Shown: positions 33,140-45,504 of the stretch, piece by piece
Position numbering within the stretch: the first letter of the stretch is position 1
How the letters are laid out: each line of letters starts with the position of its first letter
Assembly (NCBI GenBank): GCA_963664705.1
Contig: OY761556.1
Location: 6,784,001 to 6,848,000 of the forward strand
DNA length: 64,000 nt
Direction of reading: 5' to 3'
DNA from: Acidobacteriota bacterium
GTDB taxonomy: Bacteria > Acidobacteriota > UBA6911
Notes under the pieces: model-generated
What the model saw: only the letters and a program-made list of their open reading frames with translations
Database searches by the model: none
Told to the model about the DNA's origin: nothing
Translations under genes and position numbers: made by a program

Positions 33140-33323
33140 GTCGATCTCCCATCGATCAAGTTAAACGTCCGCATGATAATAGTCGAACCATCCGTTAATT
33201 GTCAGCATTTCAAAAACTGTTGCCTGGCCAGGAAACCGGGAGAACCGGCTTTTCGCGGGGTGGCAACCTCGAAAGATTGAAGCGATTGATTTTCCAGGTC
33301 GGCCGATGCTACAGTTAACCCAT

Positions 33324-33674
33324 ATGAATCCGCTTATCCCGTTGTGCGTCATGGCAGTTTTGGTCGGCTCTGTCGCCGTGATGTTTATTCTTGCGTCCAT
33401 CTTCCTGGGCCCAAAGAAAAGACATCCGGTTAAAGACACGCCATTTGAGTGCGGCTTTCCGTCCGATGGATACAAGGGATCCATGCCGGTGCGGTTCTAC
33501 ATCATCGCGATGCTTTTCATCATATTTGACGTAGAACTGGCGTTTTTGTTCCCATGGGCTGTCGTTTTCCGCTCTCTCGGGCTGTTTGGATTATTGGAAA
33601 TGTTCATCTTCTTTATCGTCGTGGGCGTTGGCTTCGTCTACGCATGGAAGATCGGTGCACTGGAATGGGAATAG
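33324..33674 (+). CDS. nuoA: NADH-quinone oxidoreductase subunit A
   Basis: PFECG, FYIIAMLFIIFDVE, FPWAV, GALEWE. Confidence 0.95.
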   Translation: MNPLIPLCVMAVLVGSVAVMFILASIFLGPKKRHPVKDTPFECGFPSDGYKGSMPVRFYIIAMLFIIFDVELAFLFPWAVVFRSLGLFGLLEMFIFFIVVGVGFVYAWKIGALEWE

Positions 33675-34171
33675 AAAATACCGCTGGCGATACTCCCGAT
33701 TTCTGCCTCCGGCTTTTACAGGAAAATCTTCCGGATGCAGTCCTGGAGACGATGTTGCCTCAAGGGGATCCTACGGCAGTCATTCGTCCGGATTCTCTGT
33801 TGAAGGTCGTGGAATTCCTTAAAACCGATTCGCGGCTTTTATTCAACGTCCTGATCGACATCACGGCTGTTGACTACCTGGAACGGAATCCCCGGTTCGA
33901 TGTCGTTTACCAGTTCCTTTCGCTCCCCTTCAACCGCCGCGTGCGATTGAAGATTGCGGTGGGCGGGCCTCAACCGGTGCTGGATTCCATAACCGCGCTA
34001 TGGGGCGCCGCCAACTGGCTGGAACGTGAGGTCTGGGACATGTTTGGCATCCGGTTTGCCGGCCATCCGGACTTGAAGCGCATTCTCATGTATGAAGAGT
34101 TCGAGGGGCATCCCTTACGCAAAGATTATCCCATCAACCAACGGCAACCGCGAATTGGGCCGAAAGTCTGA
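33665..34171 (+). CDS. nuoC: NADH-quinone oxidoreductase subunit C
   Basis: DITAVDY, ANWLEREVWDMFGIRFAGHPDLKRIL, GHPLRKDYP. Confidence 0.93.
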   Translation: MGIENTAGDTPDFCLRLLQENLPDAVLETMLPQGDPTAVIRPDSLLKVVEFLKTDSRLLFNVLIDITAVDYLERNPRFDVVYQFLSLPFNRRVRLKIAVGGPQPVLDSITALWGAANWLEREVWDMFGIRFAGHPDLKRILMYEEFEGHPLRKDYPINQRQPRIGPKV

Positions 34172-34178
34172 GGTGACC

Positions 34179-35780
34179 GTGGCCGAAACTGTAGAGCTTA
34201 CCATCGACGATCAGAAGGTTCAGGTGCCGAAAGGAACGCTGATTATTGAAGCGGCCAAAACGATCGGAATCCGGATCCCGCATTATTGCTACCACCCGGG
34301 GCTTTCGGTTGTGGGCAGTTGCCGCATGTGCCTGGTCGAAATCGAGAAGAACCCCAAACCGCAGCCGTCGTGTGCAACGCCCGTGGCGCCGGGAATGGTT
34401 GTCCGGACCAAGACGCCGGAAACACTAAAAAATCGGCGCTATGTGCTGGAGTTTCTGCTCTCGAACCACCCGCTGGACTGTCCTGTGTGCGATCAGGCCG
34501 GCGAATGCGAACTTCAGAATTACTATATGGAGCATGGGCTGTACGATGCGCGGTTTGACGAAAATAAGACCAAGCGCAAGAAAGCCCGCCCCATCGGCCC
34601 CTATGTGATGCTGGACCAGGAGCGATGCGTCCTGTGCACCCGATGCGTCCGGTTTACACGAGAGATAACCAAGACGGGAGAATTGGGCGTTATCGACCGC
34701 GGGCATCGAAGCGAAATCGATGTGCTGCCCGGGTTTGAGCTGAACAATCCCTATTCCGCCAACGTGATCGATATATGCCCGGTGGGAGCTCTGACCTGCC
34801 GCGACTTCAGGTTCAAATGCAGAGTCTGGTTTCTGGGGAGCGCTCCCTCTATTTGCCCCGGCTGCAGCCGCGGCTGCAATATCGACATCCACTTCAATGA
34901 GCGCTTCAACCCGCGCTATCACGACCAGAGAGTTCACCGCCTGAAGCCCCGGTTCAACCAAGAGGTCAACCAGTACTGGATCTGTGATGCCGGTCGCTAC
35001 TCCTATCATTCCATTGATGCCGCAAACCGCCTTCGCGCACCTCGCGTCAAACAGGGAGATCAGTTTGTGGAAATCTCATGGACGGAGGCGATTAAAACCG
35101 CTGCCGACGCAATAAGACAGGCCGGATCCAAAAACATTGCATTGCTGGTTTCTCCTCAATTGAGCAATGAAGAATTGTTCCGCATCCGACAGCTCTTCAA
35201 GGACGGTCTTGGCATCGAGACGATTGAAAGCCAGGTTCCCAATAAAGAGCCGGTCTATTCGGACGATTTCCTGATTACGGCAGACAAGAATCCGAATTCC
35301 CGCGGCGCGGCGGTTCTTTTCGGCGCAGGGTCGGGCGTGGACCGGCTCCTTCAGCAATGCGCCGCCGGCCAGTTCCAGGTGCTTTTTGTTTTTCAGCACG
35401 ACCTTATGGTCGGATACGATTCGGCTCGCGTGCGCGAAGCGCTGAGCAAAGTGAACTGCGTGATTTTTCAGGGTTCGTGGGATCAGCCGACCGCACAGCT
35501 TGCGAGCCTGCAACTCCCTTCGGCCGTTTATGCCGAAAAGGAGGGGACTTTTACTAACGTACAGGGAAGGGTGCAGCGGTTCCGTCCCGCCGTTCCTCCA
35601 ATGGGCGAGTCTTTGCCGGATCTGGAAATTGTGGCAAAGCTGGCTGCCGAGCTCGGGATTCCTCTGTCAGGTGCGTCAGCGGAAGAGGTGTTCCTGGAAA
35701 TCGGAAAAACGTACAGCGCCTTTGCTGGCATGACATGGCAGACGGTGGGCGCAAGTGGTCAGTTGTTGCAGGTCCTTTAA
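34179..35780 (+). CDS. nuoG: NADH-quinone oxidoreductase subunit G (short form)
   Basis: Fe-S motifs CYHP...SCRMC, HPLDCPVCDQAGEC, CVLCTRC...CPVGAL, CPGCSRGC...ICDAGR; C-terminal EKEGTFTN. Confidence 0.88.
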   Translation: MAETVELTIDDQKVQVPKGTLIIEAAKTIGIRIPHYCYHPGLSVVGSCRMCLVEIEKNPKPQPSCATPVAPGMVVRTKTPETLKNRRYVLEFLLSNHPLDCPVCDQAGECELQNYYMEHGLYDARFDENKTKRKKARPIGPYVMLDQERCVLCTRCVRFTREITKTGELGVIDRGHRSEIDVLPGFELNNPYSANVIDICPVGALTCRDFRFKCRVWFLGSAPSICPGCSRGCNIDIHFNERFNPRYHDQRVHRLKPRFNQEVNQYWICDAGRYSYHSIDAANRLRAPRVKQGDQFVEISWTEAIKTAADAIRQAGSKNIALLVSPQLSNEELFRIRQLFKDGLGIETIESQVPNKEPVYSDDFLITADKNPNSRGAAVLFGAGSGVDRLLQQCAAGQFQVLFVFQHDLMVGYDSARVREALSKVNCVIFQGSWDQPTAQLASLQLPSAVYAEKEGTFTNVQGRVQRFRPAVPPMGESLPDLEIVAKLAAELGIPLSGASAEEVFLEIGKTYSAFAGMTWQTVGASGQLLQVL

Positions 35781-35825
35781 GTCGTGGAGCCGTAGCGGTT
35801 CTCACGAGGTGCCGGGGATAACGAT

Positions 35826-36911
35826 ATGTGGCTTGATGTGCTCATTGCGTTGATCAAAGCGCTCTTCTTCCTGTCCTGTGTGCTGACGCTGACCTCACTG
35901 CTGACATGGATGGAACGAAAGCAGTCTGCCGTCATGCAGGACCGGCTTGGTGCCAACCGCGCCAGGATACTGGGCATTCAAGGATTCGGGTTGCCGCATA
36001 TCGTGTCGGATGCCCTGAAGATGTTTTTTAAGGAAGACTATGTGCCGCCCGGCGGGGATCGGATTCTTCACACCGCCGCCCCGATGGTTGCGCTTTTCTT
36101 CGCCCTCATGACTTTTGCCGCGATACCCTTCGGCGATACCCTTCAGATTGCCGGCCACCGAATTGATTTGCAGGTCCTTCCCTTGAATGTCGGCCTCCTG
36201 TTTGTTTTTGCCATGATGTCGCTCGGCATATACGGTACCTTCCTGGCCGGCTTCGCCTCGGACAATAAATATGCATTTCTCGGAGGACTGCGCGCTTCCA
36301 GCCAGATGATCAGCTACGAGATCACCATGGGAGCCACGCTGGTCGGACTCCTCATGATTTTTGGAAGTCTTGACCTGGCGGAATTGAATCGGGCGCAAGG
36401 CGGCCTGCTCTGGGGCTGGCTTCCGAAATGGGGGATATTCCTGCAACCGGTCGGGTTCCTGCTGTTCGTCGCCGCCGGAATGGCCGAAACAAAGCGTATC
36501 CCTTTTGATCTGCCGGAAGGAGAATCGGAAATCATCGGGTATTTCGTCGAATACAGCAGTATGAAGTTCGGCGCGTTTTTCATGGCGGACTTTATCGAGA
36601 CGATTCTCATTGCGGCGATGATCACCACGCTGTTTTTTGGCGGCTGGCAGATTCCCTATCTGCAGCCGGACGGTTTTCACCTGCCCTGGGGCTCATTCCA
36701 CGCACTCCCGCATCTCCTGGTTGCGTTGCTTCAGATGGCAGCCTTTGGCCTCAAGGTTTTCTTCTTCTGCTGGTTCCTGCTGCTGATCCGGTGGACACTT
36801 CCGCGCTTCCGCTATGATCAGCTGATGCGGCTGGGATGGAAGTTCATGCTGCCGATTTCGGTTCTGAATATCTTCGTTACTGCCGTGATCCTTGTATTGA
36901 TGAAGAAGTGA
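35826..36911 (+). CDS. nuoH: NADH-quinone oxidoreductase subunit H
   Basis: ERK...QDRLGANR, QMISYE, PFDLPEGESE, RWTLPRFRYDQLM. Confidence 0.95.
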   Translation: MWLDVLIALIKALFFLSCVLTLTSLLTWMERKQSAVMQDRLGANRARILGIQGFGLPHIVSDALKMFFKEDYVPPGGDRILHTAAPMVALFFALMTFAAIPFGDTLQIAGHRIDLQVLPLNVGLLFVFAMMSLGIYGTFLAGFASDNKYAFLGGLRASSQMISYEITMGATLVGLLMIFGSLDLAELNRAQGGLLWGWLPKWGIFLQPVGFLLFVAAGMAETKRIPFDLPEGESEIIGYFVEYSSMKFGAFFMADFIETILIAAMITTLFFGGWQIPYLQPDGFHLPWGSFHALPHLLVALLQMAAFGLKVFFFCWFLLLIRWTLPRFRYDQLMRLGWKFMLPISVLNIFVTAVILVLMKK

Positions 36912-36946
36912 TTTCGGATTCCAGATTTTAGATTCCGGATTCCAGA
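36912..36946 (+). repeat. Heptamer array, left arm (5 x TTYYRGA)
   Basis: TTTCGGA TTCCAGA TTTTAGA TTCCGGA TTCCAGA directly after the nuoH stop. Confidence 0.9.
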
Positions 36947-37193
36947 TGGCATCTGACCTTGGGCCGGAGACCCGATAGGGAATAGACAGGGGCGAGCGCA
37001 GCGAATCCCCGGCCATTTTCTGGCGCGCCTATGATTGTGCAACATGGCCTGTTCAGGTAAAAAGGAAAAGAAAAACTTGGAGTTTGGGTGTGGAAACCCG
37101 GAAGGAGCCCGGAGGGCGACCGAAGGGTTTCTACTCCCAAACTCCAAGCGCGGATGCACTCGGATAGCACAGTCCTACATATTGAAGGCGCCC

Positions 37194-38012
37194 ATGATCA
37201 ATAACACCAACCTTTCTCACTGGAACAGACTCCAAGCGAAGAGCCTTGACGCTCAATTTGTTAATGAGATGATTACCGGCCTTAACTGCTCTCCTTTCGA
37301 GGCGGAAGCTATTGTAGAGAAAGTTCATGAGGTTTACGTGCCGCTGTTTCAGACGGCGCAGGGACTTAAGCCGGGTCAGATTCAAGTGGCCGTGATCGAT
37401 GCTTCGGTAGCGCCTAATGTGCCACTGGCAAAAGCCAAGCAGAGACTGGTAACCCTGACCCTTCATGCAGGTACCGAAGATATCGAGACTCGAAAAAGGG
37501 GATCCGTACCAGCTCTTCGTCAGAAACGATTGTGCCGCATGTGCCAAGAAGCATTTCAGCAAGGGGGATTGTTGACCTTGGAGGATTTGGCCAATCTGTT
37601 CAATTGCGGCGTCCGCACTCTGGTGAACGACCTGGCGGCCTTGCGCAAACAGAGCATTGTGCCTCCTCTGCGCTCTACGACCAAGGATATGGGCCGCGCC
37701 ATCACCCATCGCCAACTGATTATCACGCTCTGGATGCAAGGGCTTGAGTACTCCGAAATCGCCCGTAAGACCAATCACACCATCGACTCCGTAGCCAACT
37801 ACGTGGATAAGTTTAAACGCTGTGCAGCCCTGTTTGTTTCTGGATTTGACGTGGATACAGTTGCTCTGATGGTAAAGCTTTCAACGCCTCTGACCAAGGA
37901 ATTTCAGCGTATCCACTCCGCTTGCCACGGGACTCCTCACCGTCTTCGGGAATTGGAAGATTTCCTCAAAAAAAACCGCATACCAAGCCTGCGCGGGAGG
38001 AAACGGTCATGA
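37194..38012 (+). CDS. DUF1670-like protein, paralog A
   Basis: LKPGQ, VTLTL, RMCQEAFQQGGLLTLEDLA, HTH-like GVRTLVNDL, DMGRAITHR, EIARKTNHTIDSVANY. Confidence 0.75.
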   Translation: MINNTNLSHWNRLQAKSLDAQFVNEMITGLNCSPFEAEAIVEKVHEVYVPLFQTAQGLKPGQIQVAVIDASVAPNVPLAKAKQRLVTLTLHAGTEDIETRKRGSVPALRQKRLCRMCQEAFQQGGLLTLEDLANLFNCGVRTLVNDLAALRKQSIVPPLRSTTKDMGRAITHRQLIITLWMQGLEYSEIARKTNHTIDSVANYVDKFKRCAALFVSGFDVDTVALMVKLSTPLTKEFQRIHSACHGTPHRLRELEDFLKKNRIPSLRGRKRS

Positions 38013-38794
38013 TTGCCCAATCTGAGGCTCAAAAACAATTCGGCTCTGCGCGGAAGCGCTTCCTGCAGTCTTCTATTGAAAATTTTCTGGACCAGGAGTT
38101 CCCTCGCACCTTCGGACCAGTAATTCGCGAGAAAATGGCAGAAAAGATTGTGGCGCTTGTCGACCAACAACTACCTCCCAAGGATCATCTGCGCCCTGGA
38201 CAGTGTGTTTGGAATGCCGTATCCATTGCGACCCGGCCTGACAGCCCCAACTGTCGTCTTGTCCCCATAGTCTTGACGCTTGTGGATTCTTCGGATGCCG
38301 AGCAACTGGCTCGCGGAACACCCATGTCCAGAATCGCCCAAACGTCCATCGCTCGGATTTGCCGTGAAGCCTTTGAACAAGGAGCCTTGCTCTCGATGCG
38401 CGATATTGGCCTCTTAGTCTGGCGAGATAACGCCCACATCTCGCAGGTCCGGAAAAAGTGGGAGGCTGAACAGCAAACATCGTTGCCTCATGTCGGAACT
38501 ATTCAAGATTTCGGCTCATGCATCACTCATAAGTCGGTCATTGTGCGCAAGGTTGTTTATGAAGGGAAAGATCCCCGTCGTGCTGCAGATGAAACCAAGC
38601 ACTCGCAGAGAGCCGTCGATCGTTACCTAAAAGACTTTCATCGAGTAAGAACGTGCTTCGAACATATCCAAGATGTTGAATTCGTTATCAAAACAACAGG
38701 TCTATCCAGGCAGCTGGTAAACCAATATGTCAGAATCATCATGGAAAATGAGAAAACGTTTCCTAAAGAGAACTTGACAGGCAAGATTGCTTAA
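38009..38794 (+). CDS. DUF1670-like protein, paralog B (ATGA-coupled to paralog A)
   Basis: LRPGQ, IVLTL, RICREAFEQGALLSMRDIG, DFGSCITHK, ETKHSQRAVDRY; colinear with paralog A. Confidence 0.75.
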   Translation: MIAQSEAQKQFGSARKRFLQSSIENFLDQEFPRTFGPVIREKMAEKIVALVDQQLPPKDHLRPGQCVWNAVSIATRPDSPNCRLVPIVLTLVDSSDAEQLARGTPMSRIAQTSIARICREAFEQGALLSMRDIGLLVWRDNAHISQVRKKWEAEQQTSLPHVGTIQDFGSCITHKSVIVRKVVYEGKDPRRAADETKHSQRAVDRYLKDFHRVRTCFEHIQDVEFVIKTTGLSRQLVNQYVRIIMENEKTFPKENLTGKIA

Positions 38795-38891
38795 ACTTCG
38801 GCGCTTTGCTCGCCGTTGGTTTGACTGGTTTGGGAAAAATACAATGCCAATTCCGGCAATGCCGGTAAATAGCGGATCCAGTCGTGGCACA

Positions 38892-38927
38892 TCCGAAAAT
38901 CCGGAATCTGGAATCTGGAATCTGGAA
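38892..38927 (-). repeat. Heptamer array, right arm (inverted relative to 36912-36946)
   Basis: TCCGAAA A TCCGGAA TCTGGAA TCTGGAA TCTGGAA, next to the stop of the convergent gene. Confidence 0.9.
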
Positions 38928-42918: not shown

Positions 42919-45504
42919 CTAGCTGATGGGCCAGAGTTCATCCGGAGTTCTCAGGCGCGGTACATTGGTGGCTGCGTCCGGAGATGAAGGCTGGCCCGGG
43001 CGCGACGTCCAGACATCGGGCGTCTTGGGCAGGACCGGTTTTGCCTGGATAGCCTCTTTCGCTTCCTTTGGATTTGACCCGCCTCCCGAACCGGCGCTGC
43101 CGCCGCTATTGATATATACCATCGTGCCCGATATGGAGACGCCGGCGGAGCCGATGTCCACGAAGTTGCCGCCCACTTTAAGACTGATCTGAGCCCCGGC
43201 CTCCAGAATGATTTTTGTGCCGGCCTTCAGGTGAATATCTCCCGCAGACAGTGCATGACTTCCGGTGACGCTTTCCTGCTGATTGCCTTTGATGATCAGG
43301 TTCTGGTCGAGCTTGATTCTCTCATAGCGGTCTCCTTCAACGACATGGTGGCAGTCTCCCCCCACCGTTTCCCGCTTATCGCCTGTGATTGATAAATCCA
43401 GGCTTCCTGGCCCAGGATCGTAGGGATCGGCGCCGCGAACATAATTCTGCCGGCTGCCTCCGATCAGGAGTTCCATTTTTCCGGCGACATGCTCAAAGTG
43501 ATCCCGCAGAGTAACGGCATGCTTGTCTCTGCAGACTGCTTCGAACTGGTCGCCCTGCATCACCTTCTTGTCCGGATCGATCATTCCCACCACGATGTGG
43601 CGCTCGTTGCCGATCCATTCCTTGTCGTCATGCCGGATCAGGCTGTCTCTATCGCGTTGGGCGTGCCAGAAGATCTGCTCTTTGTCCTTCCGGTCGTTGA
43701 AGCGGAGTTCGTTGAATCCCTCGCCATTCTGGGTGCTGCACGTCTTGATACCGCTCACAGTCGGGTCATGAGGCAGTTCATTATCCGGCCCATCGCCGAT
43801 ATAGGGCGGCATTTGTTCGTAGTTGTACACGCTCCCGATAATGATCGGGCGATCAGGGTCGCCTTCCAGGAACGCAACCACGACCTCTTGTCCAATGCGG
43901 GGCCAGAAGTAGGCTCCCCAGCGCTTGCCGGCCCATATTTGCGCCACGCGGATCCAGCAGCTTGCATTTTCCGGATGCGGGAGCGCGTCGCGGTCCCAGT
44001 GAAACTGCACTCTCACGCGACCGTATTTATCCACCCAGATTTCTTCTTTTTGTTTGCCGACAACGGTTGCGGTCTGGAGTCCATGAATCACCGCCCTGGC
44101 GGTCTTGCGCGGCGGGCGATAGGTCCAGCTTGCCGGGATGCAGGTGAATTTGTTTTTATACGGGCCGCCCTTCTGGGCGACCGCTTCGTTTTCTTCGCTG
44201 GATCGATAGTTGGCGGCTTGAACGATGGAATGCTCTACGGAAGTCAGGATGTAGCGCCCATTTGTCGGCTTGTGCTTGTGTTCGGTCATATCGAAATAGA
44301 ATCCGGCGGAAAACGCTCCTTCCCGGGAGATACCGCTAATGATCCAATGCGGCGTTTCTTCACTCTCCATATACACGCGAACCTGCTTCTTGCCTTCCTG
44401 TTCAACCTGGTCGAGCCTTGCGGCGGGCTTGTTGCAGAATTTTGCATAGTCGCCGGGGTAGTCGTAAATCTCCAACTTGTCTTTGTCGCCTACCGTAACG
44501 CGCGTCAGTTCGGAGACCTCCAGGGTTTTGCGGGGCATTTCAAAATGTCGATCGCGCAGAGTGACGCGGCCGGGCCGGATTTGCTGCAGCACCTGAAATA
44601 CCTTGACGCCGTGTTGTTCAGGCATCTTACGCTGAATGGCTTTGATAAGCTGGGTAATGATGGTTTCCAGAATAAACTGTACGCCGCCAAAGAGCCCCGT
44701 CGTGAGTGTTTTCAGTACGCCATCCTTCAGTGTGGACAGGACGTCCGTCTCCGCTTGCTTGACCGTGCTTTTGCCTTCGTTCTGGAGCAGGCCGAGCCCC
44801 TTGGTGGCGGCCTTGATAACGAGGCTGTCCTCCGGCGGCTGCCATTGTTCTCCTTCGTCTCCGAAGAATGGAGCTTTGCTGTCGATCGGGCAGGGAGCGT
44901 GAGCCGCGGCGGCGTCGCCGAAAATCAACGTATGCTTGCCCTGTTCATGTTTGAAATAATAAAAGATGCCTTCCTCTTCCATAAGGCGGGAGACGAAGGC
45001 AAGGTCTGTTTCGCGGTATTGGACGCAATAATCGCGGGTGCGGTACTGGCCGGCGCTGGTCTTATCGTGATAGGCGACAAATCCCGGGTATTCGCTTTTC
45101 CAGAAATCGAATATACGTTTGATGATGTCGACCGCTGTCAGATCCTGAAAGATGCGGCAATTGGCGCGGTGGGACAGCAGGGCCAGCCAGGGAACCAATT
45201 CGAGGCTGTAAAAAGCGTTGTCGCTCTCATGTTTTGTTTTGCCGAAACGATCGACGATGCCGTGGAAGTATCGAATATTGCGCTTTCCCTGGTCGCTGTC
45301 ATCATACAGCTCCAGTCCGACCGTGACCCCTTTGCCGATGATGTTGTTCGGGTCGATCGCCTTATTTTCGGATCGCGCATCGATTTGAAATCGGTAGATA
45401 TCCGAAATGGTTTCCACCCCGGTGAACTCGTTGATCAGCAGCACGTTTTCGCCCAGGGGCGTTTCAAGTTCGAGAATTCGGTCCTTTTGCTTTGTGTCGT
45501 ACAT
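42919..45504 (-). CDS. vgrG: Type VI secretion spike protein VgrG/TssI (orphan)
   Basis: RIFQ, YCVQYRETDLAFVSRLMEEEGIFYYF, YDYPG, DKYGRVRVQFHWDR, PRIGQEVVVAFLEGDPDRP, NELRF; gp5-like repeats. Confidence 0.95.
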   Translation of the reverse strand: MYDTKQKDRILELETPLGENVLLINEFTGVETISDIYRFQIDARSENKAIDPNNIIGKGVTVGLELYDDSDQGKRNIRYFHGIVDRFGKTKHESDNAFYSLELVPWLALLSHRANCRIFQDLTAVDIIKRIFDFWKSEYPGFVAYHDKTSAGQYRTRDYCVQYRETDLAFVSRLMEEEGIFYYFKHEQGKHTLIFGDAAAAHAPCPIDSKAPFFGDEGEQWQPPEDSLVIKAATKGLGLLQNEGKSTVKQAETDVLSTLKDGVLKTLTTGLFGGVQFILETIITQLIKAIQRKMPEQHGVKVFQVLQQIRPGRVTLRDRHFEMPRKTLEVSELTRVTVGDKDKLEIYDYPGDYAKFCNKPAARLDQVEQEGKKQVRVYMESEETPHWIISGISREGAFSAGFYFDMTEHKHKPTNGRYILTSVEHSIVQAANYRSSEENEAVAQKGGPYKNKFTCIPASWTYRPPRKTARAVIHGLQTATVVGKQKEEIWVDKYGRVRVQFHWDRDALPHPENASCWIRVAQIWAGKRWGAYFWPRIGQEVVVAFLEGDPDRPIIIGSVYNYEQMPPYIGDGPDNELPHDPTVSGIKTCSTQNGEGFNELRFNDRKDKEQIFWHAQRDRDSLIRHDDKEWIGNERHIVVGMIDPDKKVMQGDQFEAVCRDKHAVTLRDHFEHVAGKMELLIGGSRQNYVRGADPYDPGPGSLDLSITGDKRETVGGDCHHVVEGDRYERIKLDQNLIIKGNQQESVTGSHALSAGDIHLKAGTKIILEAGAQISLKVGGNFVDIGSAGVSISGTMVYINSGGSAGSGGGSNPKEAKEAIQAKPVLPKTPDVWTSRPGQPSSPDAATNVPRLRTPDELWPIS

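Follow-up and report, generated by a model that had tools for sequence, protein, structure and literature searches.

A recently active insertion sequence at the three-nucleotide centre of GC-rich palindromes, with a DUF1670 protein pair as its likely recombinase

The stretch of DNA analysed here (the window, 64,000 nucleotides) is part of a 6.89-Mb genome assembled as a single contig. It contains two adjacent genes, ORF A and ORF B, which overlap at an ATGA and encode paralogous proteins (~27% identity; profile match 100%). Both are members of DUF1670 (PF07900), a Pfam family without an assigned function, with scores of 137.8 and 149.5 bits against a cut-off of 25 (E values of 4e-40 and 1e-43). 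The pair is preceded by a non-coding region containing a long hairpin, is bracketed by short palindromic boxes, and lies among host repeats, one of which bears a GC-rich palindrome and is taken here, by resemblance, to be of the REP type (Table 1). Read from their translations, the genes to the left (33306-36911, + strand) form a partial NADH-dehydrogenase-like cluster, while an ORF to the right (42919-45504, - strand) is VgrG-like.

Table 1. Features of the DUF1670 locus, in window coordinates.
Feature	Position	Strand	Basis or remark
Mobile element	37030..38796	+	Three identical copies, different flanks; ~3x-depth contig
Last element base, C38796	38796		Repeat of target base C37029; three-copy comparison
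Left target arm GCGCC (host)	37025..37029	+	Copy comparison
Target spacer TTC (host)	38797-38799	+	Differs among copies: TTC, TCC, TCT
Right target arm GGCGC (host)	38800-38804	+	Nine genomic matches cover the rebuilt empty site
-10 hexamer TATGAT of predicted junction promoter	37030..37035	+	Sequence; first 3 nt are the central core of the element
Left subterminal 12-bp imperfect palindromic box, predicted DUF1670 binding site	37038..37049	.	Kept in relatives
Long hairpin in 5' non-coding region	37076..37148	.	Apex C-GNA-G mini-hairpin conserved
ORF A, DUF1670, 272 aa	37194..38012	+	Near-invariant residues: R160, H195, Y203 (99%) and R109, R115, H172 (97%) in 99 sequences
ORF B, DUF1670, 261 aa	38009..38794	+	R116, D167, H174, K175, H198, Y206 invariant in 90 sequences
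-35 hexamer TTGACA	38774..38779	+	Sequence; 17 bp to the -10 after end joining
Right subterminal 12-bp imperfect palindromic box	38780..38791	.	Kept in relatives
Host REP-type repeat unit left of target, outside element	36961..37012	.	Dozens of genomic copies
Host repeat linker holding the right TGGCA, outside element	38805..38891	.
Host heptamer array, not target	36912..36946	+	One of 68 arrays of at least three copies in the genome
Host inverted heptamer array, not target	38892..38927	-

A BLAST search of the genome, a check proposed by the first-pass annotation of this DNA, revealed two further copies of the locus. The three copies (at 6600672, 6821030 and 6862865 of contig G000:C1) are identical over 1,767 bp, all differences lie outside this interval, and the flanks are unrelated. 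This comparison sets the left end at 37030, in agreement with an early caveat that it might lie near 37031, and replaces an initial estimate of ~1.93 kb for the length of the element. The only ORFs between the ends are the two DUF1670 genes, as had been noticed from the start. In four runs of one sample the element collapsed to one 1,773-nt contig at ~3x flank depth, and each of the three flanks was present; the assembly may itself derive from these runs, which show only that the copies are not an assembly slip. Contigs of relatives from two other studies (X8 and X16) end at the same element ends and have different flanks. No mini-copies of the element were found in this genome. The locus displays the general hallmarks of an insertion sequence, namely identical copies, sharp ends, differing flanks and empty sites, and it is almost certainly a real, recently active mobile element with these ends. 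The three copies share one orientation and are confined to 265 kb, despite 37 empty oriented sites genome-wide, of which 17 are on the leading and 20 on the lagging replication side; it is possible that this clustering reflects local hopping.

Removal of the element together with one repeated C rebuilds the target GCGCC-TTC-GGCGC; at the other two copies, TCC and TCT separate identical arms. A single base is all that is repeated at the two ends of the element. The rebuilt empty site is covered end to end by nine BLAST matches in the genome, which contains 54 GCGCC-N3-GGCGC sites against 18.8 expected; with other spacers the same arms occur at 15 to 26 sites (spacers of 1, 2 and 4-9) or 46 (spacer of 0). 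The 37 empty oriented sites have the form GCGCC-TYY-GGCGC. The left neighbour gene was matched in 22 of 29 genus relatives, and in 14 of these 22 the right neighbour gene lies no more than 1.5 kb further on, too close to accommodate the element; judged by this spacing, the orthologous locus is empty in those 14 relatives. An IS110-family element present in 11 copies (e.g. ORFs at 1470537 (+) and 6558018 (-)) targets the same family of host repeats. Its insertion point is a GTAG-like repeat foot, ~8-10 nt from the palindrome split by the DUF1670 element, and its ends are unrelated to those of the latter.

The first-pass annotation had placed a 1.93-kb insertion in the loop of a heptamer hairpin, with TGGCA as the duplicated target. 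The underlying letters were read correctly: five TTYYRGA heptamers on the left, TGGCA at both 36947-36951 and 38885-38889, and five inverted heptamers on the right, with one extra A. The target, however, is the three-nucleotide centre of the GC-rich REP-type palindrome, ~80 bp further in. The right TGGCA belongs to a host linker and recurs in four of eight other linker copies among the matches listed, none of which is followed by a heptamer array, and the other two copies of the element have neither TGGCA ends nor heptamers. Moreover, instead of an uninterrupted loop of ~7 nt, the heptamer arrays at this locus in three genus relatives flank a spacer of ~80-110 nt. On the evidence of the other copies, the linker copies and the empty loci of relatives, the heptamer hairpin is scenery rather than target, and insertion into its loop with TGGCA duplication is almost certainly wrong, despite the presence of TGGCA at both claimed places. 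A TGGCA circle junction, predicted on the same basis, is unsupported. In several genus relatives (L092, L094 and L096) a variable spacer lies between inverted heptamer arrays where nuoH-like and AMP-binding genes meet.

The pair belongs to a large family. A DUF1670 profile search returned 1,734 clusters at 50% identity; close homologues are many, most of them on contigs of 1-3 kb, as would be expected of repeats that break assemblies. A scan of a genome collection yielded 54 DUF1670 loci whose titles include Bacteroidota, Acidobacteriota, Desulfobacterales, Acidimicrobiia, Planctomycetia, Lentisphaerae and two archaeal orders. ORFs A and B occur together in 45 of the 54 loci, while six of the remainder are cut by contig ends and three are broken. 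Together with the three identical copies and the empty locus in relatives, this bears out the initial view of an autonomous-looking, repeat-targeting element. No full-length match was found among 40 relatives (three were partial), and the spread is patchy: 1 of 400 genomes in the phylum and, for three other groups with the central genomes counted, 2 of 201, 3 of 301 and 13 of 301, numbers that underestimate the element where assemblies are fragmented. It was not found among the plasmids, phages and viral contigs searched. The dN/dS ratio was 0.04-0.19 in 18 of 20 comparisons (the other two were saturated), which shows that purifying selection acts on both DUF1670 proteins. Called elements measure 1.65-1.93 kb, which leaves no space for another enzyme gene.

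The ends and the target rule were compared across relatives. Motif searches placed both ends in 39 of 57 loci, to which L123 was added; 35 of these loci had 10-nt flanks, and omission of L038 and L058, whose right ends are doubtful, left 33 for analysis. The loci have conserved ends and palindromic targets, as an examination of other DUF1670 pairs, suggested at the outset, was meant to reveal. In the 33 rebuilt targets, which are not independent as they include related elements and the three copies in this genome, the arms pair at 178 of 264 positions, compared with a mean of 113 and a maximum of 143 when flanks were shuffled among loci; none of 10,000 shuffles reached 178. Pairing peaks sharply at a spacer of 3 nt (153 of 198 positions, vs 53-97 for spacers of 0-2 and 4-7). 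The palindromes at L014, L017, L020 and L032 are poor, and a 4-nt spacer fits L034, L054 and L055. Close relatives use different arm sequences. In all 33 loci the element ends in the same base that stands immediately left of the insertion (26 C, 7 T), the ends being called by ungapped motifs of which the flanking CC and C are part; the omitted L038 breaks this rule. The first spacer base matches the first base of the element in 27 of 33 loci, the second in 7 and the third in 13, and these matches point to a shared core of C plus a preferred T. The first triplet of the element is TAT or TAC in 29 loci; the four atypical triplets may have been carried in from earlier targets. The target spacer, in contrast, takes 18 values over the 33 loci and always stays on the right, the reciprocal product occurring in none of them.

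Joining of the element ends brings together a 12-bp box, 5 nt, a 3-nt core, 5 nt and a second 12-bp box, and this geometry is found in 37 loci, in which the boxes are palindromic and match each other. The original statement that terminal inverted repeats are lacking is therefore only partly right, since these boxes are subterminal, imperfect palindromes. The donor junction and the target are both two-fold symmetric about three bases, and in donor and target alike the top-strand crossover lies at the 5' edge of the three core bases. The stop codon of ORF B falls inside the terminal 5 nt of the element. Joining of the ends of the element in the window also creates a TTGACA-17-TATGAT promoter sequence; across the 33 loci the joined-end -35 and -10 each match at least five of six positions in 17 and are weaker in 16, while in the inserted state none of the 33 exceeds 3 of 6 at the -10 slot (range 0-3). 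Signs of a further promoter within the left end were inconsistent across 44 loci. The junction promoter and the two-fold symmetry of the joined ends make a circular intermediate quite probable, as predicted from the sequence. The proposed search for a circle junction gave no end joint in the contigs of seven runs, contigs being prone to drop rare forms, and the sole match in a metagenome scan for the joined-ends pattern, which returned none of this subfamily, was a tandem join rather than a circle. L066 (~790-715, - strand) contains a ~56-nt unit that carries both end motifs but no gene and is directly adjoined by another left end; this locus is a tandem of non-autonomous units, followed by what is presumably an IS3-like orfA fragment.

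In the searches described here the two proteins match no known transposase or recombinase. Structural models (pLDDT 84 and 87, local values; pTM 0.51 and 0.64, so that domain packing is not confident) predict an N-terminal helical part with a β-hairpin, a winged helix at ~104-166 and two helix-turn-helix (HTH) units. Foldseek returned no match at E 0.001 against the PDB and viral models; the best structural matches (Z 6.6 and 6.3) are to small HTH proteins, and no transposase or recombinase catalytic domain appears among the fold matches listed. Sequence searches of the PDB found nothing for one search and two HTH regulators for the other, and an atlas search gave DUF1670 clusters plus weak HTH leads only. 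Neither ORF has a Pfam or NCBIfam match to a DEDD (RuvC-like) recombinase or a Y1/HUH domain, nor a Pfam match to a DDE domain, and DEDD was also absent among the best 25 of 71 families listed for 99 A proteins. The early remark that the pair lacks known transposase motifs was thus borne out by family searches. An H..G..H..Y spacing suggested homology to tyrosine recombinases, which was set aside for want of profile or Pfam support: against a profile built from 20 tyrosine recombinases of this genome, hhalign probability was <1%, like that of reversed controls. Fusion of A and B by a -1 frameshift at an A-run near 37969 was also rejected, as the run is not conserved and the A-B spacing varies among relatives.

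The lengths of the called elements and the selection acting on both proteins direct attention to the pair itself, and it is likely that the DUF1670 proteins are the catalyst. Their conserved Arg/His/His/Tyr set may reflect tyrosine chemistry, an assignment that is kept tentative, at somewhat below even, because the Tyr occupies an HTH slot that often carries a structural aromatic residue: weak structural matches (Z 5.3-5.4) place it in the recognition-helix slot of a resolvase/sigma-4-like HTH, where an aromatic residue can be structural. A control for the frequency of His and Tyr in ordinary HTH slots comprised four matches, too few to be informative. The same residues would also fit a His/Asp metal site. 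Fused A+B proteins of ~530 aa (P0258 and P0260) hint that A and B may form a heteromer. Whether DUF1670 represents a new class of protein-only recombinase is finely balanced; such a class would combine winged-helix and HTH units, its own His/Arg/Tyr active site, an A-B heteromer and two-fold symmetric sites around a 3-bp core, with palindromic symmetry, instead of a guide RNA or a set sequence, deciding the choice of target. Proteins of ~930 aa (P0244, P0246, P0248 and P0249) each contain three matched DUF1670 stretches and keep a D.G...H..H..Y motif in one or two of the repeats.

The reading that we favour, with moderate confidence, is that of an insertion sequence that enters the three-nucleotide centre of GC-rich palindromes, the DUF1670 pair acting as the likely joint recombinase on the predicted circular intermediate. 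In this model A and B would bind the element at its two 12-bp palindromic boxes and close it into a double-stranded circle, in which the junction promoter would drive a burst of A and B; as the boxes overlap the promoter, the two proteins would also repress it. The complex would then read the target as a symmetric site, consisting of a C-rich arm, a 3-nt spacer and a G-rich arm, without a guide RNA. The top strand would be exchanged at the 5' edge of the 3-nt core in both partners, a match of one or two bases being enough, perhaps via a tyrosine-DNA link formed by Y203/Y206 with the conserved Arg, His, His and Lys. Full exchange of both strands over a mismatched 3-nt core would be expected to leave the reciprocal product in about half of the daughters, and its absence from the 33 loci suggests that exchange is probably limited to one strand, with copying or repair of the other. 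Completion of the other strand by replication or repair would leave the target spacer on the right.

The most substantial alternative, although an unlikely one, is that the pair only binds or bridges the ends and the target, while a host or co-resident enzyme (a Xer-type recombinase, a topoisomerase, a REP-associated Y1 transposase or a resident IS110) does the cutting. Both proteins are predicted to consist mostly of HTH units, and the genome offers 27 tyrosine-recombinase matches, a single Y1 gene and the 11 copies of IS110 within the repeat family that the element targets. The IS110 element, however, shares no end sequence with the DUF1670 element and enters the foot of the repeat rather than its apex; the same ends and cut rule are found across many phyla and archaea; and invariant His, Asp, Lys and Arg residues would exceed the usual needs of DNA binding. 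Less likely still is a single-strand route of the IS200/IS605 type, in which the top strand is peeled off into a single-stranded circle and pasted into a hairpin extruded at the replication fork. Top-strand products alone are seen, and the targets form hairpins closed by a loop of 3 nt. A C-GNA-G loop, which is a stable motif of single-stranded DNA, caps the internal hairpin of those elements that have one, and all three copies in this genome have their coding strand on the leading-strand side. Against this, orientation relative to local GC skew, which is a rough guide, is split 6 to 7 in 13 other loci and does not support a consistent replication-strand bias; the proteins have no HUH family match; and the junction promoter that is conserved is double-stranded.

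Selection of the target by a guide RNA from the 5' non-coding region, as in IS110/IS1111, is very improbable, even though the layout of subterminal boxes, junction promoter, C(T) core, REP targets and a structured non-coding region resembles that of IS1111. The non-coding region is short (69-112 nt), and its long hairpin is present in 29 of 46 loci, hence missing in many relatives, and is inverted in L042. The region and its own target have 22 6-mers in common, vs 24.2 in shuffles (n=30), arm sequences differ between close relatives, and no DEDD domain was found. An Rfam search of the region gave one weak, chance-level match. The hairpin stems are unrelated in sequence and occur in either arm order around the one conserved C-GNA-G apex, and the hairpin may be a separate single-stranded DNA module carried by many elements. 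For the preferred reading, in which A and B are the recombinase, the target would be recognized by its symmetry.

Among known systems the DUF1670 element would, by analogy, work most like IS1111. Circle-junction promoters are established for IS110/IS1111, and the IS1111 group (ISEc11; also IS621) has 11-13-bp subterminal inverted boxes and REP targets (PMC11187229, PMC11208160). The element shares with IS1111 the subterminal boxes, abutted ends that form a promoter (here predicted), a short core, site-specific insertion and REP targets, and its end extensions are of 8 and 5 nt (repeated base counted) vs 7 and 3 nt. Unlike IS110/IS1111, it has two HTH-rich paralogues in place of one enzyme and no DEDD recombinase, and, in contrast to IS1111, it shows no indication of a guide RNA and has a target set by two-fold symmetry about 3 nt. 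Transposons with tyrosine recombinases, such as Tn916, Tn554 and RIT, have a core of 6-8 nt. With these and with the strand-biased circularizing elements (SE) the DUF1670 element has in common symmetric sites around a short overlap that does not need to match, more than one recombinase-like gene, an apparent one-strand bias and a set of residues similar to R..H..H..Y; it differs from tyrosine recombinases in its 3-nt core and the lack of a profile match. SE have four core genes and a median length of 15.7 kb (PMC10214605), whereas the present element is 1.8 kb long and has no cargo, only two DUF1670 ORFs and none of the intA, tfp, intB and srap core. Hairpin-like targets, almost no duplication and a one-strand product are features in common with IS200/IS605 and REP-associated Y1 elements, but there is no HUH match and the ends are palindromic boxes rather than hairpins. 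IS608-type transposition is reported to target the lagging strand (PMC6006769). Unlike two-ORF elements of the IS3 type, the DUF1670 element has no conserved -1 frameshift fusing its ORFs and no DDE match. Rep-Arvir has, by its description, an unrelated fold (PMC13107129).

Neither DUF1670 nor PF07900 appears in the literature searched, which lay mostly outside subscription papers, ISfinder and supplements, and nothing similar emerged from a broader search by title or abstract start. The element represents a recently active insertion-sequence family not found in that literature, and in the tests made its enzyme falls into no known class. To our knowledge prokaryotic transposition has been credited to a few chemistries, those of DDE, DEDD and HUH enzymes and of tyrosine and serine recombinases; the DUF1670 family spans bacteria and archaea, yet fits none of them by these tests. 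A role in recombination would give a function to an unannotated Pfam family, and with the ends, cut point and target rule defined, the proposals can be tested directly in a construct of 2 kb. An integrase of this kind, compact, palindrome-reading and nearly scar-free, could also serve as a tool.

Other DUF1670 subfamilies differ in their ends. A related subfamily (L115 and L125-L127, in the class of G442, the class with 13 matched genomes among 301) shows inverted ends and a 3' non-coding region that are both longer, and its sites are not obviously palindromes. The DUF1670 pair at L133 (~330-2000), which likewise belongs to a subfamily other than that of the present element and has different ends from it, lies at the end of a repeat inside an apparent CRISPR array.
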